The translations under genes were made by a program, and so were the position numbers. Positions 3,484-55,578 of a stretch of 64,000 bases of DNA are shown here, piece after piece. Below the pieces are notes generated by a model that searched no databases, was not told the origin of the DNA, and saw only the letters and a list, made by a program, of their open reading frames with translations. The first letter of the stretch is position 1. Each line of letters opens with the position of its first letter. Source of the DNA: an uncultured Chloroflexia bacterium (GTDB lineage Bacteria > Chloroflexota > Limnocylindria > Limnocylindrales > CSP1-4). Location of the stretch: positions 721,685 through 785,684 of the forward strand of contig CAWHHF010000022.1 in NCBI GenBank assembly GCA_963829105.1, in the 5' to 3' direction.

Positions 3484-4343
3484 TCCAGGGTCGCGCCCGA
3501 CGGCGCGCGATGGGCGGCTGGATCTCGGCCGTGGTCGGTGGGGCTGACGACCGGGCCGCCGCCTCCATCCTCGATCGGATCGCCGCCTGGAGCTCCATCC
3601 TCTCGCACAGGGACCCGGCCTCCGACCTGTCACGCCTCAACGGCAACCCGGCCACGTCGGTCCGGGTCGGTCCGACCCTGGCCGCCGCCCTGCACGCGGC
3701 CGCCGCGGCCCGACGGCTGACGCGGGGCATCGTGGACGCCGGGGTCCTGGATGCCCGGCGCCGCGTCGAGGCCGGCGAGCCGGCGGTTCCCGCGGGCCGC
3801 TGGTCGATCAGCGGCGACGTCGCGGTCCGCCCGTCGAGCACCGGCCTCGATCTCTCCGGCGTCGCGAAGGGGTGGCTCGCGCAGCGCGCGCTCTCGCTGC
3901 CGGGGATCGTGCTGCTGCCGGTGGCGCTCGTCGAATGCGATGGCGACATCGCCGTCCGCTCGGATGGGTCCATCCCGTTCGAGATCCAGGTCGAAGACCC
4001 GCGAGACCCCGATCCATCCTCCCTCGAGCCGATCGCGACGATCTCGCTGCCCGCCGGAACGCCGGTCATGCTCGGGATCGCGACGTCCGGCGTCTACCGC
4101 CACGCGTGGGACGGCCGGGGTCACATCGTGGATCCCGTCTCCGGCGAGCCCGCGAACGCGGGCATCGTCACGGCGACCGTCATCGCACCCGATGCGATCG
4201 CGGCCGAGGCGCTCGCCAAGGTCGTCGTGCTGCGGGGTGCCGCCGCCGCCCCGATGCTCGCCCGGGCCGGCGCCACGGCGATCGCGCTGACCGACCGTGA
4301 CACGCAGCTTCGCTTCCCGGGGATCGAGCGCTGGGTCGCGTGA
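3480..4343 (+). CDS. apbE: ApbE-family FAD:protein FMN transferase-like protein
   Basis: Motifs SDLSRLN, DLSGVAKGWLA, HIVDPVSGEP and VIAPDAIAAEALAK. The GTG at 3480 overlaps the upstream TGA (GTGA). No signal peptide or lipobox of its own. Confidence 0.8.
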   Translation: MIQGRARRRAMGGWISAVVGGADDRAAASILDRIAAWSSILSHRDPASDLSRLNGNPATSVRVGPTLAAALHAAAAARRLTRGIVDAGVLDARRRVEAGEPAVPAGRWSISGDVAVRPSSTGLDLSGVAKGWLAQRALSLPGIVLLPVALVECDGDIAVRSDGSIPFEIQVEDPRDPDPSSLEPIATISLPAGTPVMLGIATSGVYRHAWDGRGHIVDPVSGEPANAGIVTATVIAPDAIAAEALAKVVVLRGAAAAPMLARAGATAIALTDRDTQLRFPGIERWVA

Positions 4344-4433
4344 TGCCGGCGGAACGGCTCGGCCGGCTCCCGCTGCAACCGGCTCCCCGCCGCGGCATTG
4401 CCGTTGCCGCGGCGCTCCGGCACGTGACCGAGC

Positions 4434-6275
4434 CTAGATCCGGCGGATCTCGCGAACGTTGTCGAACAGGGTCAGGACGGCCAGCCCGATGATCGCCGCG
4501 ATCACGATCGGCCCGACGAACTCGTAGAGCACGATGAGCGCGCCGATCCCCGCGAGGAACAGCGTCGAGCGCAGCAGCAGGGTCGTGAGGCGACGGCGGA
4601 AGGCTGCCTCCAGCACCGCGTAGACCGCGACCGCGAGCAAGAGCGCCACGTACCAGGGCATCGGCGTCAACCACGGCAGGGCCACCGCGCCGACCAGGAC
4701 CAGGCTGATGCTGACCGCCGACCACACTTCGACCAGCCGGCCATACCGGGTCATCTCCGGGGGAACCGGGTGGTGATCGTCGCGCAGGTGCGCGCGCGGG
4801 TCACCGTTGTCCCCGACGCGAAGCCGCTCCAGCTCGCGTGTGCAGGCCCGGATCGAGTCCGACAGGACGCCCTCCTGGGTGCGACCCTGGTTGACCTCGG
4901 CCTCGCGCTTTGCCAGCTCGGCCGCCCGGCCGGCGTGGATCGCGGCGAAGCTCTGGTCGGTGGACAGCGCCCGGACCTCAAGGTCGAGGCCGTCGAGGCT
5001 TGCCGCCTTGGCATCGTTCTCGGCCCGCAGCGTCGACAGCTCGGCGCCAAGCTCGGCCAGACGGGCTTCGAGCGCGGCGGGCATCCGGAACGGCGGCGCC
5101 GTCTTCGCGAGCCCGGCCCAGCCGATCGGGTCATTCCACGACTGGCGGATCGTGCCGGAGCGGGTGTACTTCGGCCCGGCGGGCGCCCGCTCGCCGGCGA
5201 AGCGGTCGAAGGTGTCGAGCCCCATGAGCCCCCGGTAGCCGTCGACCCACGGGACGGAATCGTCGATGAGGACCGGCGTCCAGGGCTCGCCACCGTCGCC
5301 CCCGATCTGGAGGCCGTCGCCGCGCGCATAGTCGATGAACGGGATGCTCAGCGCGCGCTCGAGCGACGCCGCGAGGTCGCCGGGGTCGGGCTGCCTCAGG
5401 GTGTCGCGCCAGAACGATCGAACGGCGTCGAGGATCCCGTGCAGGCGTCGCGCGCCCGGTATCGGTGCTGCGGTCATGTACTCGCCGGCCTCGAAGTAGG
5501 CCGCGTGCGAGCCCGCCCCGGCGTGGATCACCGGGTGAGAGCCGGACTTGACCAGGTACGGGTCGTCCCAGCGTCGCCGGAGCTGGTCGCCGGAGTAGTC
5601 GTGGGCGGCGCAGGCGAACCAGACCGGCCGCGGACCGTCGGGCGCGTCCTCCAGGAACACGAACGCCTGCTCCAGGTCCGACTCGTGGTCGTTCGCGCCC
5701 GCGAACGTGGAGCGCCAGTCGTTCATGAAGTAGAAGTACATGTAGTGGAGGACGATCCAGCCCTCCGAGCGGAGCACCCGACCGTGGAACACGTACCGGG
5801 GGTCGGCCTTGCGGACCTTCTCGTACTTCTCCGAGGCTGCGGCGGTCGTGCCGCCCGGGACGGTGCCCCGGAGGAGGAGCGAGACCGTGAAGCCGGTGTC
5901 GACGAGCCGGGCGAAGATCCCCACCCGCGCAAGCCGGCTTGGAGCGTGGAACTCTGGCCGGTCCGGGCGCCGGTTCCAGCGCGCGAGCTCGAGCCCGCTC
6001 AGCGGCTTCTGGCCGAGGCGCATGGAGAGGGTCTCGCCGGGAGGCGCTACGAACGACACCAGGCGCTCCTCGGTCAGCTCGCCAAAGGGCACCAGGAGTC
6101 GCCTGTCCCGCTCCGATCGCCCCACGAACAGGTCGCACTCGGGGATGTAGGAGTCGACCGCGGCCGGAAAGAACAGCTCGCCCTGGGTGTAGCGGACGGC
6201 TGGCTCGTACGCCCGCAGGAGCTCCAGGTCGGAGAGGCTCGTGGCTACCGGCCCGCCGGCCTGGGCTTCGGTCAC
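4434..6275 (-). CDS. Vps62-like (DUF946-like) domain protein with coiled-coil and 3-4 C-terminal TM helices
   Basis: WIVLHYMYFYFMNDW..NDHESDLEQAFVFL..HPVIHAGAGSHAAYFEAGEY resembles the Vps62 pattern (FY..N....HEGDWE....GSHA.Y). Also has a coiled-coil (LEARLAELGAELSTLRAEND) and a hydrophobic C-terminus. The GTG start at 6275 overlaps the upstream stop (GTGA). Confidence 0.75.
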   Translation of the reverse strand: MTEAQAGGPVATSLSDLELLRAYEPAVRYTQGELFFPAAVDSYIPECDLFVGRSERDRRLLVPFGELTEERLVSFVAPPGETLSMRLGQKPLSGLELARWNRRPDRPEFHAPSRLARVGIFARLVDTGFTVSLLLRGTVPGGTTAAASEKYEKVRKADPRYVFHGRVLRSEGWIVLHYMYFYFMNDWRSTFAGANDHESDLEQAFVFLEDAPDGPRPVWFACAAHDYSGDQLRRRWDDPYLVKSGSHPVIHAGAGSHAAYFEAGEYMTAAPIPGARRLHGILDAVRSFWRDTLRQPDPGDLAASLERALSIPFIDYARGDGLQIGGDGGEPWTPVLIDDSVPWVDGYRGLMGLDTFDRFAGERAPAGPKYTRSGTIRQSWNDPIGWAGLAKTAPPFRMPAALEARLAELGAELSTLRAENDAKAASLDGLDLEVRALSTDQSFAAIHAGRAAELAKREAEVNQGRTQEGVLSDSIRACTRELERLRVGDNGDPRAHLRDDHHPVPPEMTRYGRLVEVWSAVSISLVLVGAVALPWLTPMPWYVALLLAVAVYAVLEAAFRRRLTTLLLRSTLFLAGIGALIVLYEFVGPIVIAAIIGLAVLTLFDNVREIRRI

Positions 6276-45137: not shown

Positions 45138-46805
45138 CTAGACCTCGACCACGACCGGGAACACCATCGGCCGGCGCTTGGTCTGCTCGTACAGGAAGCG
45201 CGAGAGGCTGTCCTTGATCTGGGACTTGAGCAGCGCCACCTCCGAGATCCGGTCGCCGGGGGCGTCGACGGCCGCGCGGAGCCGGCGGATGGCCTCCTCG
45301 ATGATCGGGTCCTCCTCGTTCCCGTGCACGAAGCCGCGGGTGATGATCTCGGGTCGCCCGACGACGCGCCCGGTCTGCTTGTCCACCTGGACCACGATCA
45401 TGAACATGCCGTCGTTGGCGAGGGCGCGCCGGTCACGCAGGACGACGTCGCCCACCTCGCCCACCGACAGGCCATCCACGTAGACGTAGCCCGCGGTCAC
45501 CGGCTGGCCGCGGCGGGCGCTGCCGTCGGCAAAGATCTCGATCGGCGTCCCGTTCTCGATGATGAACACGTTCTCCGGCAGGACGCCCGTCTCGATCGCC
45601 AGGCGGCCGTGCTGGACCAGCATCCGGAACTCGCCGTGCATCGGGATGAAGTGGGTGGGCCTGGTGAGCCCCAGCATCAGCTTGAGCTCCTCCTGGCTCG
45701 CGTGGCCGGAGACGTGGGCGCGCTTGATCGCGTGGTAGTAGACGTTCGCGCCGGCCTTGAACAGGTTGTCGATCGTCCGGGCGACGTACTCCTCGTTGCC
45801 GGGGATCGGGCTGGCGGACACGATCACCGTGTCGCCGGGCTGGATCTCCACGAAGCGGTGGTCGCGGTTGGCCATACGCGCCAGGCCTGCCATCGGCTCG
45901 CCCTGGGCGCCGGTCGTGGCGATGACGAGCTTGCCCGCGGCCACGTCCTTGATCTTGTCCTTGCCCACGATCATCGACGGCTCGTACTTGAGGTAGCCGA
46001 GGTCGGTGGCGATCCGGAAGTTCTGCTCCATGGACCGGCCGATGACGGCCGTCTTGCGGCCCAGGTCGGCCGCGGCGTCCAGGACCTGCTGCACGCGGGC
46101 GATGTTGCTGGCGAAGGTGGCGATGATCACGCGGCCGTCGAGCGGCTCCATGATCTCGCGGAAGGCCTCCCCGACGGTCCGCTCGGACGGGGTGTAGCCC
46201 GGGTTCTCCGCGCGGGTTGAATCCGACAGGAGGCAGATGACGCCCTCCTCGCCCAGCCGGGCGAGGATGTGGAAGTCGGACAGCTTGCCGTCGACCGGCG
46301 TGTGGTCGAACTTGAAGTCGCCGGTGTGGACCACGATGCCGACGGGCGTGCGCAGCGCGATCCCCATCGCGTCCGGGATGGAGTGGCCGATCCGGAACGG
46401 GATAGCCGTGAACGGCCCGATCTCGAGCTCGTCGCCGGGCTCGAGCGAGTGCAGCGGGTTGTTGTGGAGCTTGTGCTCCTTGATCTTGTTGCCCAGGAGG
46501 CCACGGGCCAGCGTGCTCGCATACACGGGGACGCCCGGGAACTCGGGCAGGACGTAGGGCAGCCCTCCGACGTGGTCCTCGTGGGCGTGGGTGATGAGGA
46601 ACGCCCGGACCTTGGAGCGGTTCTCCATGAGGTAGCTCACGTCGGGCACGACGAGGTCGATGCCGAACATCTCCTCGTCCGGGAACATGAGGCCGCAGTC
46701 GATGACGACGATGTCGTCACCGTACTCGAACACGTACATGTTCTTGCCGATCTCCCCCACCCCGCCGAGCGGGATGATCCGGAGAGGTGTGCTGGGGTCT
46801 GCCAT
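45138..46805 (-). CDS. rnj: Ribonuclease J
   Basis: Beta-CASP metallo-beta-lactamase motifs ITHAHEDHVGGLPY, HTGDFKFD, HVSGHASQEEL. Confidence 0.95.
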   Translation of the reverse strand: MADPSTPLRIIPLGGVGEIGKNMYVFEYGDDIVVIDCGLMFPDEEMFGIDLVVPDVSYLMENRSKVRAFLITHAHEDHVGGLPYVLPEFPGVPVYASTLARGLLGNKIKEHKLHNNPLHSLEPGDELEIGPFTAIPFRIGHSIPDAMGIALRTPVGIVVHTGDFKFDHTPVDGKLSDFHILARLGEEGVICLLSDSTRAENPGYTPSERTVGEAFREIMEPLDGRVIIATFASNIARVQQVLDAAADLGRKTAVIGRSMEQNFRIATDLGYLKYEPSMIVGKDKIKDVAAGKLVIATTGAQGEPMAGLARMANRDHRFVEIQPGDTVIVSASPIPGNEEYVARTIDNLFKAGANVYYHAIKRAHVSGHASQEELKLMLGLTRPTHFIPMHGEFRMLVQHGRLAIETGVLPENVFIIENGTPIEIFADGSARRGQPVTAGYVYVDGLSVGEVGDVVLRDRRALANDGMFMIVVQVDKQTGRVVGRPEIITRGFVHGNEEDPIIEEAIRRLRAAVDAPGDRISEVALLKSQIKDSLSRFLYEQTKRRPMVFPVVVEV

Positions 46806-46831: not shown

Positions 46832-47782
46832 TCAGAACAGGGTGAGCTGTGAGGCGTCGCCGGCCGCGGGATCGGCGGGGGCGACGGCTGGTGGCGTGGC
46901 GGCGGCTGTGGACGCAGGGGGCGTGGCGCCGGGGTCGGCGGGCGTCTTGTCCAGGGCGGCCATCTCGTCCGCGGCGGGCATCTCGTTCGGGCGCGGCGCC
47001 GGGGCGCCGACCGGCGTGTCGGTCGCCGCCGGGCGGGAGACCGGCGTCGCTTCGGACGCGGGGCCGGCAATCGTCGTGGCGGGGAGCGCAGCTGTCGTGG
47101 CGGGGAGCGCAGCTGTCGTGGCGGAGTCAGTGGCCGTCGTGGCGGAATCAGTGGCCGTCGTCGCGGGGCCCGAGGTCCCGCCCGCCTCGCGGCGCTCGCG
47201 GGCAAGGACCAGCACCGACGGGACAAGGGCGATGTCCTCGAAGCTCTCGCGCTCGATGGCCGCCGTTCGGAGCGCCGCGGCCGGGTGATACATCGCGAAC
47301 ACGAGCGCATCGCGGGCGCCCGTCAGCGGGTCCGCGGGCCGCTTGGTGCCGTGGACCTGCCCGATCCGGGCGCCGGGCATGAACGTCGCCATGGAGTACC
47401 TGCCGAGCGTGACGACCACGGCCGGGTCCAGCGCGGCAAGCTGGCGCCGCAGGAACGGCGCGCAGGAGGCGATCTCATCGGGCAGCGGATCCCGGTTGGC
47501 GGGCGGACGGCACTTCACCACGTTGGTGATGAACACGTCCTCGCGCTGCCATCCGATGCTGCCCAGGAGGCCGACCAGCAGGGCTCCGGCGCGGCCGACG
47601 AACGGACGCCCTTCGCGGTCCTCGTTCATGCCGGGTCCCTCGCCGACGAGCACGACCTCCGTGTCGGGGTCGCCCTCACCCGGCACGGCACGTGTCCGGC
47701 CCTCGTGGAGGCGGCAACGGGTGCAGTCCCGGACCTCGCTCGCGATCTGCTCGAGCGCCTCGAGGCGCTCGCGTCGCGTCAC
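46832..47782 (-). CDS. Family-4 uracil-DNA glycosylase with an about 110-aa low-complexity C-terminal tail
   Basis: Fe-S/UDG4 motifs CTRCRLHEGRTRAVPGEG, GEGPGMNEDREGRPFVGRAG, NVVKCRPP and HPAA. The tail carries ATTATDS x2 and ATTAALP x2. Confidence 0.85.
   Translation of the reverse strand: MTRRERLEALEQIASEVRDCTRCRLHEGRTRAVPGEGDPDTEVVLVGEGPGMNEDREGRPFVGRAGALLVGLLGSIGWQREDVFITNVVKCRPPANRDPLPDEIASCAPFLRRQLAALDPAVVVTLGRYSMATFMPGARIGQVHGTKRPADPLTGARDALVFAMYHPAAALRTAAIERESFEDIALVPSVLVLARERREAGGTSGPATTATDSATTATDSATTAALPATTAALPATTIAGPASEATPVSRPAATDTPVGAPAPRPNEMPAADEMAALDKTPADPGATPPASTAAATPPAVAPADPAAGDASQLTLF
47073..47156. repeat. 4 x 21-bp in-frame tandem repeat in the UDG tail (two sub-types)
   Basis: gtcgtggcggggagcgcagct x2, then gtcgtggcgga(g/a)tcagtggcc x2, read directly. 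Confidence 0.9.
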
Positions 47783-49361: not shown

Positions 49362-51947
49362 CTACTTGGCGAGGTGCCGCTGCATCGCCGCCTTGCGGGA
49401 GAGGTTGACACGGCCCTGGCGGTCGATCTCGGTGACCACGACCATGACCTCATCGCCCACCGACACGACGTCCTCGACGGACGGCACGTGGTAGTCGGCC
49501 AGCTCGCCGATACGGATGAGGCCCTCCTTGCCCGGCAGGATCTCGACGAAGCACCCGAACGTCATCAGCCGGGTCACCTTGCCGAGGTACAGGGCGCCGA
49601 TCTCGACCTCGCGGGTGAGGCTCTCGATCCAGTTGATCGCCTTGCGCGAGTTCTCGCCGGAGACGGCCGCGATCTCCACGGTGCCGTCGTCCTCGACGTT
49701 GATCTCGGTGCCGGTCTCCTCCTGGATCTTGCGGATCATGGATCCGCCCTTGCCGATGATCTCGCGGATCTTCTCGGGGTTGATCTTGATCGTGATGATC
49801 CGCGGCGCGAACTCGGACATCTCCTCGCGAGCCGTGGGCAGGACCGACGTCATCTTGTCCAGGATGAACAGGCGGGCGGCGAGGGCCTGCTTGAGCCCCT
49901 CGCGGATGACCCGCTCGTCGATGCCCTTGACCTTGATGTCCATCTGCAGGGCGGTGATGCCCTCCGTGGTCCCGGTCACCTTGAAGTCCATGTCGCCGAT
50001 CGAATCCTCCTTGCCGAGGATGTCGGTCAGGACCACGAAGTTGCCGGTGTCCCCGTCGAGCACGAGGCCCATCGCCGCGCCGGCGACCGGCGCCTTGATC
50101 GGCACGCCGGCGTCCATGAGGGCGAGGGTCGATCCGCAGGTGGACGCCATCGAGGTGGAGCCGTTGCCCGACACGACCTCGGAGACGAGGCGGATGACGT
50201 AGGGGAACTCCTCCTGCGTCGGGAGCACGGGCAGGAGCGCCCGGGCGGCAAGGTTGCCGTGCCCGATGTCCCGGCGGGACGGCCCGCGCATCGGCTTGTT
50301 CTCACCCGTGCTGTAGGGCGGGAAGTTGTAGTGGTGCAGGTAGCGCCTGGACAGCTCGGGGCTGATCGTGTCGATGCGCTGGACGTCCGAGGACGGCCCG
50401 AGCGTGGCGACGGTCAGCGCCTGTGTCTGGCCTCGGGTGAACAGGCCCGAGCCGTGCGCGCGGGGCAGGAGGCCGACCTCGACCGAGATCGGGCGGATCT
50501 CGTCGACGGCGCGGCCGTCCATCCGGAGGCCCTCCCGCAGGACGAGCTCGCGGACGACCTTCTTCTGGACCAGCCCGAACAGGCTCTTGCTGAAGCGCGC
50601 GTTGCGGCGGGCCGCCTCCAGCAGGCGGGCGGACTCGTCCTTGTCGGTGCGGGTGGCCCGGACCGCGGTCGCGATGCCGTCCCGGAGGGTCTCGATGCGG
50701 CCGGGCAGGTCGTTGCCGAACCAGGCCAGGAGGTTGGCGGTCGCCTCGGCATCCGGCAGGGCGCGGTGATTCTCGGAGAGCTCGACCCCGAAGAAGTTCG
50801 CCAGGGTCCCCAGCTTGTAGTTCTCGAGATCCGGGTAGCCCTCGCGGGCGATGACGAGCGTGTCGAGGTACCGGCCCTGCCCGATGCGGGTGCCGTCGCC
50901 GAGGGCCTCCTCGATGAACGCGATGTCGAACCCGACGGAGTGGCCGACGATCGGCGCGTCGCCGACGAACTCCAGCGCCCTGCGCGCGGCCTCGGCCGGG
51001 CTCGGGGCACCCTCGACGTCCTTGTCGGTGATGCCGTGCATCTGGTTGCCGACGATCGGCCGGCCGGGGTTGACGAGCGTTGACCAGGTGTCGGTGATCG
51101 TGCCGCCCTTGACGCGAACGGCCGCGATCTCCACGAGGTCCGCCATCTTCGGGTCGGTGCCGGTGGTCTCGACGTCCACCACCACGAACTCGCCGCCGGC
51201 CTTCGCCAGGTCTGCGAACGCCAGCACGGAGTCGGTGAGCGGCTCGAGGTACGGGACCAGCTTCGGCTTGCCGACGAGCGCCTGGAGCCTGTCCTGGAGC
51301 TCGACGAGCGGCAGCAGGGACCGCTGGGCGAACAGGATCGCCTCCGCCATCACGTCCTCGGGCAGGATCTTGACCCCTGCCTCGACCATCATGATGGCGT
51401 CGCGGGTACCGGAGACGACCAGGTCGAGGTCGGAATCCGCGAGCTCGGTGTAGGTGGGGTTGAGGACGAACTCCCCGTTGATCCGGCCGACGCGGACGGC
51501 GCCGACGGGGCCCTGGAACGGGATCTCGCTGATCGTGAGGGCGGCAGACCCTGCGATCGTGCCGAGGACGTCCGGGTCGTTCTCCTGGTCCGTCGAGAGG
51601 ACGGTGATCACGATCTGGACGTCGTCCTTGTAGCCCTCGGGGAAGAGCGGGCGGATCGGGCGGTCCGTGAGCCGGGCCGCGAGGGTCGCGGCCTCGGACA
51701 TGCGGCCTTCGCGCTTGATGAAGCCGCCCGGGATCTTGCCGGCCGCGTACATCCGCTCCTCGAACTCGACGGTGAGCGGGAAGAAGTCGAGACCGGGCCT
51801 CGGCTGGCTGCGGTTGGCCGTCCCGAGGACGAGGGTGTCGCCGTAGCGCAGGGTGACCGCGCCGCCGGCGAGGCCGGCGAGCTTGCCGGTCTCGAGCGTG
51901 AGGGTTCGACCGCCGAACTCGATCTCGAGCGTGGTGGGTGTGGGCAC
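49362..51947 (-). CDS. pnp: Polyribonucleotide nucleotidyltransferase (PNPase) with an inserted DEDDh exonuclease domain (861 aa)
   Basis: GTG 51947 lies about 9 nt after AAGGAGG. PH-1 (FFPLTVEFEERMYAAGKIPGGFIKREGR), PH-2 (DGRAVDEIRPI, RAHGSGLFTRGQTQ, RRDIGHGNLA, STSMASTCG, DFKVTGT), KH (GKGGSMIRKI), S1 (GKVTRLMTFGCFVEI). Confidence 0.95.
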   Translation of the reverse strand: MPTPTTLEIEFGGRTLTLETGKLAGLAGGAVTLRYGDTLVLGTANRSQPRPGLDFFPLTVEFEERMYAAGKIPGGFIKREGRMSEAATLAARLTDRPIRPLFPEGYKDDVQIVITVLSTDQENDPDVLGTIAGSAALTISEIPFQGPVGAVRVGRINGEFVLNPTYTELADSDLDLVVSGTRDAIMMVEAGVKILPEDVMAEAILFAQRSLLPLVELQDRLQALVGKPKLVPYLEPLTDSVLAFADLAKAGGEFVVVDVETTGTDPKMADLVEIAAVRVKGGTITDTWSTLVNPGRPIVGNQMHGITDKDVEGAPSPAEAARRALEFVGDAPIVGHSVGFDIAFIEEALGDGTRIGQGRYLDTLVIAREGYPDLENYKLGTLANFFGVELSENHRALPDAEATANLLAWFGNDLPGRIETLRDGIATAVRATRTDKDESARLLEAARRNARFSKSLFGLVQKKVVRELVLREGLRMDGRAVDEIRPISVEVGLLPRAHGSGLFTRGQTQALTVATLGPSSDVQRIDTISPELSRRYLHHYNFPPYSTGENKPMRGPSRRDIGHGNLAARALLPVLPTQEEFPYVIRLVSEVVSGNGSTSMASTCGSTLALMDAGVPIKAPVAGAAMGLVLDGDTGNFVVLTDILGKEDSIGDMDFKVTGTTEGITALQMDIKVKGIDERVIREGLKQALAARLFILDKMTSVLPTAREEMSEFAPRIITIKINPEKIREIIGKGGSMIRKIQEETGTEINVEDDGTVEIAAVSGENSRKAINWIESLTREVEIGALYLGKVTRLMTFGCFVEILPGKEGLIRIGELADYHVPSVEDVVSVGDEVMVVVTEIDRQGRVNLSRKAAMQRHLAK
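50712..51200 (-). other. DnaQ/RNase T-like DEDDh 3'-5' exonuclease domain embedded in pnp (aa about 250-412)
   Basis: ExoI FVVVDVETTG, ExoII IVGHSVGFDIAFI, ExoIII ENHRALPDAEATANLL. The frame is continuous with PNPase on both sides. Confidence 0.8.
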
Positions 51948-52023
51948 GGGTGTACGACCTCCTTGGTCGTGGGGGTTGGGATCGACCTGGCGAATGGGGC
52001 CGGGGCGAGGATCCGGATGCGGA

Positions 52024-52049
52024 CGACCCCGGGGCAGAGCCCGGGGTCG
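52024..52049 (-). terminator. 10-bp GC hairpin in the rpsO-pnp spacer (rpsO attenuator/terminator or pnp leader structure)
   Basis: cgaccccggg-gcagag-cccggggtcg, 15 nt after the rpsO stop. Confidence 0.45.
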
Positions 52050-52063
52050 CGGTGCGGCGAGTC

Positions 52064-52333
52064 CTAGCGGCGAAGCCCGAGCCGACCGATGACGGCCCGG
52101 TAGCGGGTGGCGTCCTTCTTCACCAGGTAGGCGAGAAGGCGCCGGCGCTGACCCACGAGCTTGAGGAGGCCGCGGCGCGAATGGTTGTCCTTCGGGAAGC
52201 GGCGGAGGTGCTCCGTCAGGTCCCGGATCCGCTCCGTCAGGAGGGCGATCTGGACCTCGGGCGAGCCGGTGTCGCCACTCTGGACGGCGTACGACTCGAT
52301 GACCTCTTGCTTCTTCTCCCGCGCGAGCGGCAC
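52064..52333 (-). CDS. rpsO: 30S ribosomal protein S15
   Basis: [54 protein letters not shown] follows GGAGG. Confidence 0.95.
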
Positions 52334-52501: not shown

Positions 52502-53884
52502 TCAGGCCACCGTCATCGCCTGATCCGGGCGGAGCAGGTACGGCGGGAGGTACGCCGGAAGGTTGGAGAACGGCAGCACGTCAGCGTGGAGGCGTATCCC
52601 GAGGACGTCCATCATGAACCGTCGACGCGCCTCGATCCGGCTCCAGGCCGCGGGGTATCGCGCCGCGAAGGCCGCCCGGAGCGACGCGTCCGCGAGCGCG
52701 ATCCCGTCCTCGATGTTGCTGGTGAACCACGGCGTGCCGGTGGCCGGGATGATGTCCGCCTGGAGGGCCATCCCCGATCGCAGCTCGGTCCGGGAGTCGC
52801 GGAACACCGGCGAGCCGACCCACTCGTCGAGATGGATCTGGTGACCTGCGTTGAGGAAGATCCCGAAGAACGGGTCGCCGAGGTGGCGATCGATGATCGC
52901 GTGCAGTGCTCCACCGGTCTGGCCCACGTGGAGGGCTTCGTACCACTCGGCTACAGCCGCGAAGTACGGCCCGACGAGGCGGTCCGCGTAGTCCCTGATC
53001 CCGCCCGGCAGCTGGTCCGGTCCCTCGACGACGAACCCGGCCCGGCAGGTCAGGGCGCCCCAGATGCCGAAGGCCACGGTGAACGGGTCCCCCCGCTCGA
53101 TCGGGCGTCCGCTCGGGCTCAGCAGACCGTGCGCGGCTCGCGGGCCTGCCGTGAGCATCAGGTGACACGAGAGCGGCGTTCCGTCCCAGCCCAGCAGGCT
53201 GACCGCCTGATCCTCGGGCAGCCCCGGGCGGAGGCCGAGGAGCAGGTTCCGGACGCCGTCGGACGTGCGGCACGACGCGTGCTCCATGACCGCGAGCTGG
53301 TCCACGTCGTTGATGACGCGCAGGCCGTCCGCGGCGTCGATCAGCAGCCCGTTCGCGTTGACCACGGCGCCGCCGGGCCCAGCCAGCCGCCGAAGCTCGT
53401 CGGCGAGAAACGACGGCACCTCGAGCAGCGCGGGATCCGCGTACGACTTCCAGCCCAGCACGCCCACGTGGTCGCCGCGGCCGATCCCCTCCTCCGCCAG
53501 GATCGCCCCCAACGGTCGCGACCGGTCGCGCGGCTGGGCGGGCAGGCTGAGGTCCTGGAACAGGTGGCGGCGCATCCGGAGCGGCGCCACGCCGGCGACA
53601 CCGTGGCACTCGTTGCCCACCAGGATCGCGGGTTCGGCGAGCCGATCGCGCACGTCGAGGACGAGGATCGCCTCCTCGAACCGCGGGTCGAACCCGGTCA
53701 GGAAGGCGAGGTTCGCGCTGTGCTCCCGGTCGGCGTAGACCACCAGCCGGTCGTACCCGTGACCCGCGGCACGCACGCGCAGCTGGGCGATCCGGCCCGC
53801 ATAGGCCTCCGGCGGGATCGACGGACGCGGGCCGGGCGGGCCGAAGTCGGGCATGCCGATCTCCGCCACCCGCGCCCTCGCCAT
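52502..53884 (-). CDS. Creatinase/prolidase-fold (M24-like) protein, apparently lacking canonical metal ligands
   Basis: N-terminal creatinase_N-like region (DRLVVYADREHSANLAFLTGF). The C-terminal pita-bread-like region has GDPFTVAFGIWGALTCRAG, AGHQIHLDEW, GMALQADIIP and IEDGIAL where M24 enzymes carry D, D, H, E, E. Confidence 0.6.
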   Translation of the reverse strand: MARARVAEIGMPDFGPPGPRPSIPPEAYAGRIAQLRVRAAGHGYDRLVVYADREHSANLAFLTGFDPRFEEAILVLDVRDRLAEPAILVGNECHGVAGVAPLRMRRHLFQDLSLPAQPRDRSRPLGAILAEEGIGRGDHVGVLGWKSYADPALLEVPSFLADELRRLAGPGGAVVNANGLLIDAADGLRVINDVDQLAVMEHASCRTSDGVRNLLLGLRPGLPEDQAVSLLGWDGTPLSCHLMLTAGPRAAHGLLSPSGRPIERGDPFTVAFGIWGALTCRAGFVVEGPDQLPGGIRDYADRLVGPYFAAVAEWYEALHVGQTGGALHAIIDRHLGDPFFGIFLNAGHQIHLDEWVGSPVFRDSRTELRSGMALQADIIPATGTPWFTSNIEDGIALADASLRAAFAARYPAAWSRIEARRRFMMDVLGIRLHADVLPFSNLPAYLPPYLLRPDQAMTVA

Positions 53885-53904
53885 CCGCGTCCCTCCCGTG
53901 TCGT

Positions 53905-55578
53905 TCAGGGTCCAGCCGTGGGGAGCGGCCGGACCCCCGTGGCTCCCCGCTCGATCACGATCGCCTGGTCGGCCGCCGCCGGCAGCCACGGCCCGGTCTC
54001 CCCGTCCGGCCACTGCACCCGCACGTCGACCTGCGTCGCGGGTCCGAGTCCGACGTGCATCGGGGCGAGGGTGCCGCTGATGTGCCCGCCGCCCACGGTG
54101 ACCTCGCGCTGGACGACGGTGTCACCGATCCGGACATCCACCCACGACCCGATGGCGTCCCGGTTGCCGCCCGGCTGCTGGAGCGCGATGTCCAGCCAGT
54201 GGCCCATCGCCGCGGGCGCGGTGGCGGTTCCGGCGCCGACGTTGCGCCACACGCGGGTGGGTGCGTCCAGGTACACCTCGACCAGGTCGAGCAGACCGTC
54301 GCGGTTGAAGTCGGCGAGGGCCGCCCCGCGGCCCCGGTCGAACGTCACGATCCCGGCCTGGGCGGCGCCCTCGACGAACGTGCCGTCGGGCTGGCCGAGG
54401 AACAGGTCGCTCGGGTCCCTGGACGCGTAGTCGGGCACGGCGTCGACGTTGCCCTTGGACACGAACAGGTCGACGAAGCCGTCGTTGTTGACGTCCTCGA
54501 ACTCGGGATGCCAGGCGGTGGATGGCAGCGGGTCGCCACCGGTGGCCGGTCGCGTGCCCACGACGCCGCGCTTGATGGCGATGTCGCGGTAGGTCGGCTG
54601 GGCCGGCCCGTTGAGCAGCGTCTGGAGCACGTTCGGTCCCTGGCTCGTGAGGTACACGTCCGGGTAGCCGTCCCCGGTGACGTCGTAGCTCCCGATCCCC
54701 ATCCCCCAGATCTGCAGCGGCACCCATCCGTCGTCGGCGGTGTAGAGGCGCGGCACCTCACCGGCGGCGACCCGCCACAGCTGGTCCTCGCCGACCGCGT
54801 TGTCGTAGTAGTGCCGGTCGTTGGTGACCCGGAGATCTCGACGCCCGGAGCGGTCCCAGTCGCTGAACAGCATCGACAAGGCGCAGTAGCCGGGCGTGAG
54901 GGGGGTCGGCGGTGCGTAACCCGATCCCGAGGCGTTCGGGCGGAAGAGCTCGTTGTCGGGACACGTGTAGGTTGCGTTGCCCGAGGCGTCGAGGCCGACG
55001 TAGTTGCCGAATGCCAGCGTCGGCAGCTTCGCGGCTCCTTCCCAGGTCGCGCTGAACGCCGTGGTCCAGGTCGACGGAGCGGCGAACGACCAGGCATCGT
55101 TCGCCCGCTCGAAGCGGCAGTCGCCCAGGCCCCGCAGGAGGTCCACCCCGCCCACGCGAAGGACGACCAGGTCGACTTGGCCATCGCCGTCGATGTCGAT
55201 CGGGTAGGCACCCATCACGTCGCGCCCGGAGGTGACCGGGTCCACGAGGGGAGCAAACGCGAGGCTCCCGCCGGGGCGGCTCACGTTCCGGTAGAGGGCG
55301 GCCGGGTTGCCGCCTCCGGCGACGAACAGGTCGGGCAGCCCGTTGTCGTCGCAGTCGAGGACGGCGACACCGCCGCCGATCATCGATGTGTCGCTGCCGC
55401 CGTACGTGTGGTCGAGGCCGGACGTGGCGGTCTCGTCGACGAACGTCGGCGCGCCCAGCGCCACGGTGGGCGTGACCCGGCCGCCGCGCAGCACGCCCGG
55501 CAGCAGGGTGATCGCCAGGCCCGCGGCCGCGACGACCACGAGGCCACCGATGATGACGCCGACGCGCCGGCGGGTCAT
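53905..55578 (-). CDS. FG-GAP/VCBS repeat protein with a C-terminal ASPIC/UnbV domain (CRTAC1 family)
   Basis: N-terminal TM. Repeated DxDxDG motifs (DCDDNGLPDLFV, DIDGDGQVDLVV, DVNNDGFVDLFV, DFNRDGLLDLV). UnbV-like NRDAIGSWVDVRIGD..GGGHIS. Confidence 0.8.
   Translation of the reverse strand: MTRRRVGVIIGGLVVVAAAGLAITLLPGVLRGGRVTPTVALGAPTFVDETATSGLDHTYGGSDTSMIGGGVAVLDCDDNGLPDLFVAGGGNPAALYRNVSRPGGSLAFAPLVDPVTSGRDVMGAYPIDIDGDGQVDLVVLRVGGVDLLRGLGDCRFERANDAWSFAAPSTWTTAFSATWEGAAKLPTLAFGNYVGLDASGNATYTCPDNELFRPNASGSGYAPPTPLTPGYCALSMLFSDWDRSGRRDLRVTNDRHYYDNAVGEDQLWRVAAGEVPRLYTADDGWVPLQIWGMGIGSYDVTGDGYPDVYLTSQGPNVLQTLLNGPAQPTYRDIAIKRGVVGTRPATGGDPLPSTAWHPEFEDVNNDGFVDLFVSKGNVDAVPDYASRDPSDLFLGQPDGTFVEGAAQAGIVTFDRGRGAALADFNRDGLLDLVEVYLDAPTRVWRNVGAGTATAPAAMGHWLDIALQQPGGNRDAIGSWVDVRIGDTVVQREVTVGGGHISGTLAPMHVGLGPATQVDVRVQWPDGETGPWLPAAADQAIVIERGATGVRPLPTAGP

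Follow-up and report, generated by a model that had tools for sequence, protein, structure and literature searches.

A PNPase gene with an inserted exonuclease domain

The stretch of DNA analyzed here (the window) comprises 64,000 nucleotides of contig CAWHHF010000022.1 from an uncultured Chloroflexia bacterium, and its minus strand carries a pnp gene coding for a polynucleotide phosphorylase (PNPase) interrupted by a predicted 3′-5′ exonuclease domain of the DEDDh family. The coding sequence (49362..51947, minus strand) consists of 861 codons plus a stop codon. The likely start is the GTG at 51947, preceded at a distance of 10 nt by the Shine-Dalgarno-like sequence AAGGAGG (51958..51964, minus strand), and the homologues of the protein are 858–867 amino acids long. 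The gene for ribosomal protein S15, rpsO (52064..52333, minus strand), is located directly upstream, and both genes form the canonical rpsO-pnp pair. A preliminary description, made from the nucleotide sequence and its open reading frames (ORFs), had stated that frame and codon bias run on through the flanks of the insert. This was borne out by the G+C content at third codon positions (GC3), which is 0.96 in the insert and 0.96–1.00 in the other parts of pnp, with the frame unbroken throughout and no frameshift.

Comparison of the translated ORF with Pfam identified two RNase_PH, two RNase_PH_C, one KH, and one S1 domain, plus a match to PF00929 (RNase_T). The PNPase domain order, PH-1, helical domain, PH-2, KH, and S1, is kept, and the secondary structure of the modeled protein agrees with it. 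The two NCBIfam PNPase equivalog models recognized the whole protein with 930 bits (TIGR03591, cut-off 525) and 927 bits (NF008805, cut-off 471), each match being split in two, while the middle segment matched models for DEDD exonucleases, PolC, and DinG with E values of 1e-30 to 1e-42. When the full-length structural model was used as the query in Foldseek, the best 50 matches were all PNPases. A global alignment with the E. coli PNPase showed 52% identity. The N-terminal RNase PH-like domain (amino acids 1–235; 51243..51947, minus strand, as are all features of the gene), delimited by Pfam and the E. coli alignment, includes the channel-aperture loop GGFIKREGR, which aligns with GSFFRREGR in E. 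coli; F76 and R79 are retained and the replacements of F by I and of R by K are conservative. In the C-terminal catalytic RNase PH-like domain (amino acids 481–705; 49833..50507), delimited by Pfam and alignments, the phosphorolytic motifs STSMAS (597–602) and DSIGDMDFK (648–656) align with SSMAS and DHLGDMDFK of the E. coli enzyme. The KH domain (amino acids 716–776; 49620..49802) and the S1 domain (amino acids 781–852; 49392..49607) follow, both located by Pfam. The gene is identified as the housekeeping, rpsO-linked pnp of a member of Limnocylindria, a class of Chloroflexota.

Models and alignments place the first helix of the helical domain at amino acids 236–250 (51198..51242; modeled helix 239–249), and it leads to the N-terminal junction, which reads LAKAGG. 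The inserted DnaQ-like DEDDh domain then spans amino acids 251–415 (50703..51197), as defined by PF00929, the match to the PolC exonuclease, Foldseek, and the excision described below. The remainder of the helical domain occupies amino acids 416–480 (50508..50702; Pfam, alignments, and model), the C-terminal junction being L414-P415-x-R417, and the Pfam model of the PNPase helical domain matched only its C-terminal half (amino acids 448–479). The PF00929 match covers amino acids 255–407 and the complete profile (1–164 of 164) with an E value of 8.3e-26 and 91.9 bits, compared with a gathering score of 24; the preliminary description had proposed looking for an exonuclease profile at amino acids 250–412. 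The three exonuclease motifs were located as ExoI, VVVDVETTG (51159..51185; DVETTG starts at 258 and contributes D258 and E260), ExoII, GHSVGFDIAFI (50913..50945; GFDIAF starts at 339 and contributes D341), and ExoIII, HRALPD (50751..50768; HRALPDAE starts at 394 and contributes H394 and D399). Thus, the five DEDDh catalytic residues claimed in the preliminary description are all present, and its proposal of a canonical PNPase with a complete DEDDh domain in the helical linker agrees with Pfam, NCBIfam, and the excision test.

For this test, the 165 residues from 251 to 415 were deleted in silico and the resulting 696-amino acid protein was matched again to PNPase models and structures. The shortened protein matched NF008805 in a single stretch (profile 2–682 of 683) with 940 bits, compared with 927 before excision, TIGR03591 in a single stretch (profile 1–688 of 689) with 939 bits, and residues 3–695 of the E. 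coli PNPase, again in a single stretch. The solved PNPase structures that were matched aligned with the full protein in two stretches and with the excised protein in one, and none of them has an insert. Without the insert, the helical domain (81 amino acids) is as long as that of E. coli (84). The insertion point lies about 18 residues into this domain, in the loop that joins its first two helices, near residues 252–256 in E. coli or Pseudomonas numbering, a position that is approximate because the helical domain is poorly conserved in sequence. The insert reads as a clean domain insertion, with PNPase sequence on the flanks of both junctions.

Two AlphaFold2 models, one of the full-length protein and one of amino acids 225–450, show the same connections at the junctions. 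Helix 239–249, which is helix 1 of the helical domain, is followed by GGE and then by strand 253–261, which bears D258 and E260. At the other end, an unbroken helix (396–431) runs from the ExoIII motif across the junction into helix 2, with predicted local distance difference test (pLDDT) values of 82–94. According to the models, the DEDDh domain is rigidly mounted on the helical domain through one continuous helix. In the E. coli PNPase, the helical domain is located on the face of the torus opposite S1 and KH, helps to form a pore through which the active site can be reached by another path, probably taken by inorganic phosphate (Pi) and nucleoside diphosphates (NDP), and is disordered without RNA and ordered with RNA (Nurmohamed et al. 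2009, PMC2723993). Since the helical domain is opposite to KH and S1 in the solved PNPases, the DEDDh sites would crown the distal face of the trimer. By analogy, the three DEDDh domains would sit on this face beside the pores and would be coupled mechanically to the part of the enzyme that responds to RNA binding.

Conservation, affinities, and distribution of the insert

An alignment of 186 full-length homologues was used to assess the conservation of both active sites. Within the insert, D341, H394, and D399 were found in all 186 sequences and D258 and E260 in 185, the exception being one aberrant sequence. None of the five residues varies in an alignment of 53 sequences drawn from both clades of carriers described below, nor do these columns vary among the 98 nearest relatives of the insert that are not PNPases. 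Of the phosphorolytic motifs, GDMDFK does not vary and STSMAS is kept in 185–186 of the 186 homologues; the junction residues L414, P415, and R417 are invariant or nearly so. The ratios of nonsynonymous to synonymous substitution rates (dN/dS), taken as the median of pairwise comparisons with the window gene, were 0.227 for the insert, 0.226 for PH-1, 0.148 for PH-2, 0.164 for KH-S1, and 0.52 for the remainder of the helical domain; the extreme GC3 inflates the absolute values, and it is the comparison between regions that counts. The insert is therefore constrained like the core domain PH-1 and more than the helical domain that hosts it. Neither catalytic center has decayed, and purifying selection acts on both.

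The closest solved structures to the insert by sequence are PolC exonuclease domains (9qpc and 2p1j, E values of about 1e-23 to 1e-24), followed by the S. aureus DinG exonuclease, a DnaQ domain (8h18), Cas2-DEDDh, and the epsilon subunit of DNA polymerase III (Pol III). The model of amino acids 225–450 had a pLDDT of 88 and a predicted template modeling score (pTM) of 0.84. A Foldseek search with this model gave the PolC exonuclease 9qpc as the best match, with a root-mean-square deviation (rmsd) of 1.7 Å over 161 columns and 35% identity, whereas epsilon matched at 2.3–2.8 Å rmsd, RNase T appeared from rank 16, and Orn/REXO2 occupied ranks 38–42 with 19–22% identity. There was no Orn model among the best 25 of 63 NCBIfam matches. 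Several of the 98 nearest non-PNPase relatives carry recognizable partner domains, namely BRCT (13), PHP (9), Pol III alpha (4), DinG-type helicase (4), VRR-NUC (4), GIY-YIG (3), WYL (3), and UvrD (1). Because the nearest relatives and their partners belong to the DNA side, the donor of the insert was a DnaQ/epsilon-like module and not RNase T or Orn. The label "DnaQ/RNase T-like" given in the preliminary description is correct as far as the name of the Pfam family, RNase_T, is concerned, but RNase T is not the closest subfamily, PolC and epsilon being nearer. Only the exonuclease module is shared with PolC, as Pfam found none of its polymerase domains (PHP, Pol III alpha, OB, HhH) in the window protein. 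DEDDh domains of the PolC type act as monomers and have their two termini close together, and this proximity makes them suited to insertion in a loop.

Among the near non-PNPase relatives, four proteins (P0248, P0254, P0259, and P0262) contain two or three DEDDh domains in a row, in fusion with GIY-YIG plus UVR or with BRCT. These multi-exonuclease architectures may be uncharacterized.

The distribution of the insertion was determined by scanning one genome per GTDB species with the insert and both junctions as the query. At least 401 confirmed stretches encoding the architecture were found in these species-representative genomes. The 80 loci retained from the scan share 72–93% identity, come from many independent studies, and are nearly all labeled Chloroflexota or Candidatus Limnocylindrales. 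The few other taxon labels are on contigs of 1–2 kb or are submitter-level labels inside Chloroflexota, and they probably reflect binning or naming. The best 120 database relatives of the whole protein are 80–95% identical to it, all with the same Pfam set, and more than 200 clusters of full-length proteins share the junctions. In an exhaustive HMMER search with the insert plus junctions against 1.84 billion representatives at 50% identity, the matches that span the junctions were confined to the Limnocylindria PNPase family, with no insertion in other lineages, and those examined by Pfam were PNPase pieces. Beyond them, identity decreased to 32–49% and the matching proteins were not PNPases. 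One divergent protein that spans the junctions (P0243, 864 amino acids) is 54% identical over the insert region; Candidatus Limnocylindrus sp. is among its relatives, and the architecture is shared by all of its best 120 matches. The carriers are all consistent with Limnocylindria, comprising soil clades and freshwater Ca. Limnocylindrus. Since both clades carry the insert, the insertion must be older than the split between the soil clades and freshwater Limnocylindrus, and its presence in the sequences of both places it early in the history of the class. A recent horizontal acquisition was considered and rejected: the insert gives no compositional signal (GC3 of 0.96 throughout) and is common to both deep clades.

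Fragments with 46–48% identity (P0230 and P0249) had initially suggested a separate, divergent lineage with the insert. This candidate was also rejected. The locus of P0230 (L081) belongs to a frameshift-laden long-read assembly in which the pnp gene is read in three frames, and the low identity is an artefact of these frameshifts. Many other "exonuclease" proteins of 100–390 amino acids from long ENA contigs (within P0121–P0240) resemble pieces of pnp broken by frameshifts, as was confirmed for L081 at 3600–6240. Such fragments inflate the apparent count of stand-alone DEDDh proteins and depress the apparent identities.

The preliminary description had also known of no account of the architecture, and had named a common, annotated architecture as a point against its novelty. 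On this point the outcome is mixed. No paper describing a PNPase with an inserted DEDDh domain was found in the full text of PMC and bioRxiv, but the architecture is common within one class, and its proteins are named automatically, NCBI using "polyribonucleotide nucleotidyltransferase" and JGI "DNA polymerase III epsilon subunit family exonuclease". Annotation therefore hides the feature, as the NCBI names ignore the insert and the JGI names ignore the PNPase, and hundreds of copies are found in public databases.

Genes around pnp

The minus strand of the window contains, in this order, genes for an FG-GAP/ASPIC protein and a 503-amino acid ORF, rpsO, pnp, asd, and genes for a family-4 uracil-DNA glycosylase (UDG), RNase J, FtsK, and an HTH_25 (RodZ-like) protein. 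The 503-amino acid ORF (52502–54013, minus strand), immediately upstream of rpsO, matched no family in Pfam or NCBIfam. At this place upstream of rpsO, 43 of 81 related loci have instead a gene for an NrnA-like DHH/DHHA1 protein and truB, neither of which was found in the window. This difference suggests a break of synteny beside rpsO in the window genome, and one related locus (L040) seems to share its arrangement. The NrnA-like protein (about 340 amino acids; L046 2040–3059 and L005 1566–2558) has HENPDADTLG, DHH, and GGGH motifs and matched the NrnA model from end to end with 70–81 bits, below the cut-off of 350. It may represent a divergent nanoRNase/pAp phosphatase family in Limnocylindria.

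A perfect, G+C-rich hairpin of 11 bp (GACCCCGGGCT / loop / CCCGGGGTC; 52024–52049, minus strand) is located right after the rpsO stop codon, some 75 nt ahead of the pnp start. It is a candidate terminator or attenuator of rpsO, or a processing site as in the E. coli pnp leader. The pnp leader as a whole folds no better than shuffled sequences (z of -1.4).

Downstream of pnp, the family-4 UDG gene (46832–47782, minus strand) codes for 316 amino acids, of which the UDG domain accounts only for about residues 10–187, leaving the C-terminal 130 or so without assignment; the gene called as UDG in locus L081 codes for 521 amino acids. The RNase J gene (45138–46805, minus strand; beta-CASP, RMMBL, and RNase_J_C domains) is the third gene downstream of pnp and is followed by ftsK and the HTH_25 RodZ-like gene. 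With pnp, this places the genes for two major nucleases of RNA decay within 6 kb of each other. The 64-kb window, with about 70% G+C, contains no tRNA genes and no Rfam families at the gathering threshold.

Putative role of the second nuclease

The architecture is solid as an observation: the identity of the domains, the intact residues of both active sites, the purifying selection, the clean and rigid insertion, and its retention across the lineage are all established by the analysis. As to function, we infer that the insert is an active exonuclease, that RNA is its main substrate, that it is placed by the pore, and that there may be some coupling. The preliminary description had suggested that the enzyme could trim without phosphate or act on DNA and that a trimer would have three copies of each site. 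Each protomer would have two 3′-5′ exonuclease sites, a buried phosphorolytic site in PH-2, entered via the KH/S1 face and the central channel, and a surface-exposed, Mg2+-dependent hydrolytic DEDDh site. The reading that we favor, with a probability of roughly 0.6, is that the predicted DEDDh site trims single-stranded 3′ ends, primarily of RNA, by hydrolysis and without phosphate. It would handle ends that are unable to thread the approximately 7–10 nt needed into the channel, it would sustain decay when phosphorolysis is unfavorable (low Pi or high NDP), and its activity could be coupled to the RNA-bound state of the helical domain. A more elaborate version is tentative and, in our opinion, unlikely as a whole. 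In it, the three DEDDh domains crown the distal mouth of the channel and a 3′ end would be delivered to the phosphorolytic site or onward to the hydrolytic one, as in an exosome made of a single polypeptide, with phosphate/NDP levels, or the way in which RNA orders the helical domain, determining which site is used; the ExoIII helix is directly fused to this domain.

Several points weigh against this picture. The full-length model is of moderate quality (pLDDT 71.5, pTM 0.67) because the alignment is shallow, and the placement of the DEDDh domains with respect to channel and pore is taken from published structures of PNPases that have no insert. In addition, every recognizable partner domain in the 98 nearest non-PNPase relatives is on the DNA side, which makes DNA 3′ ends a serious alternative substrate. 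The insert could then be a DNA exonuclease that fits the PNPase for resection or clean-up of single-stranded DNA 3′ ends in repair, with RNA decay left to the phosphorolytic site. Its nearest relatives by sequence and fold (the exonucleases of PolC and DinG, the CRISPR DnaQ, Cas2-DEDDh, and Pol III epsilon) point in this direction, and a family-4 UDG gene is found two genes downstream of pnp. The PNPases of B. subtilis and mycobacteria act on single-stranded DNA and contribute to repair. However, the host protein retains KH, S1, and the housekeeping rpsO-pnp context, DEDDh nucleases of the PolC/DinG group often cut both RNA and DNA (e.g., S. aureus DinG), and the UDG neighbor may be a coincidence. 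We consider a dedicated role on DNA improbable, although it is the strongest of the competing explanations. Somewhat less probable still is a built-in nanoRNase that takes the role of Orn and degrades the oligoribonucleotides of 2–5 nt left by PNPase on their way out of the lateral pore. The DEDDh enzymes include Orn and REXO2, and the insert is located in the domain that lines the pore to the active site (PMC2723993). Nevertheless, the insert is nearest to PolC and epsilon, with Orn absent from the best 25 NCBIfam matches and at rank 38 or beyond by fold. Orn is also a dimer, an arrangement unlikely for a rigidly mounted insert, and the presence of the NrnA-like DHH/DHHA1 gene near pnp in 43 of 81 related loci (DHH-truB-rpsO-pnp; L001–L081, including L005) weakens the proposal that the insert is the sole nanoRNase.

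Alternatively, the insert would no longer be a nuclease and would regulate PNPase as a structural module, by binding nucleotides, or by docking partners; the helical domain is known to influence the activity of PNPase (PMC2723993). The conservation of the catalytic residues makes such a role very unlikely: all five, together with the flanking family motifs, are kept in the 186 sequences and in both deep clades, one aberrant sequence apart, and the insert is as constrained as PH-1. As for an assembly chimera or a frameshift that joined pnp to an unrelated exonuclease gene, the window apparently comes from a metagenome-type genome, and many of the short "exonuclease" fragments stem from frameshifted long-read assemblies. 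However, the junctions are shared by at least 401 species genomes from many studies and by more than 200 clusters of full-length proteins, frame and GC3 run on without a break, and both junctions are flanked by PNPase sequence. The preliminary description had proposed a check for misassembly, and the recurrence of the junctions across hundreds of independent assemblies rules it out.

PNPase is among the most conserved and best-studied enzymes of RNA decay, and the helical domain is its least understood part. The layout described here may give one enzyme two different routes for trimming RNA ends. A whole class of bacteria that are abundant in soil and fresh water has retained the second nuclease, predicted to differ in its chemistry, throughout its diversification, which implies a selected coupling of phosphorolytic and hydrolytic 3′-end processing. 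The family is therefore a natural experiment on the role of the helical domain and the lateral pore, on the cellular balance between energy-conserving phosphorolysis and phosphate-independent hydrolysis, and on how machines built on PH rings recruit hydrolytic nucleases, as the eukaryotic exosome did.

The window protein shares with canonical PNPase, represented by E. coli Pnp, the rpsO-pnp position, the domain order, and the phosphate- and metal-binding motifs; it differs in the 165 additional residues, a second, predicted hydrolytic nuclease in the helix 1–helix 2 loop. The PolC exonuclease, the closest solved relative of the insert, is likewise a DEDDh domain inserted in another domain, PHP. 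The host of the PolC domain is a DNA polymerase and its substrate is a mismatched DNA primer end, whereas the host of the insert is an RNA phosphorylase ring. The DinG exonuclease, the CRISPR-associated DnaQ and Cas2-DEDDh proteins, and Pol III epsilon belong to the same DEDDh subfamily and, like the insert, are fused to or docked on other nucleic acid machines. In those cases the domain is at a terminus or is a separate subunit, and the partners are DNA helicases, integrases, and polymerases; in the window protein the insertion is internal. Orn/REXO2 and RNase T, which trim RNA 3′ ends, share the DEDDh superfamily and PF00929 with the insert but are distant from it (ranks 16–50 by fold) and are obligate homodimers. 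The eukaryotic RNA exosome also combines a PH ring and an S1/KH cap with hydrolytic 3′-5′ exonucleases, Rrp44 and the DEDD-family Rrp6, and Rrp44 is located on the face opposite the cap, which corresponds to the helical-domain face of PNPase (PMC2723993). In the exosome, the ring has no catalytic activity and the nucleases are subunits of their own, from other families (RNB and DEDDy RNase D-like, respectively), whereas in the window protein the ring site is intact and the DEDDh domain is part of the same chain. The likeness is one of analogy and not of homology of the arrangement. Judged by sequence and fold, the window protein is neither an Orn-type enzyme nor a PolC, but a PNPase with a DEDDh-family insert.

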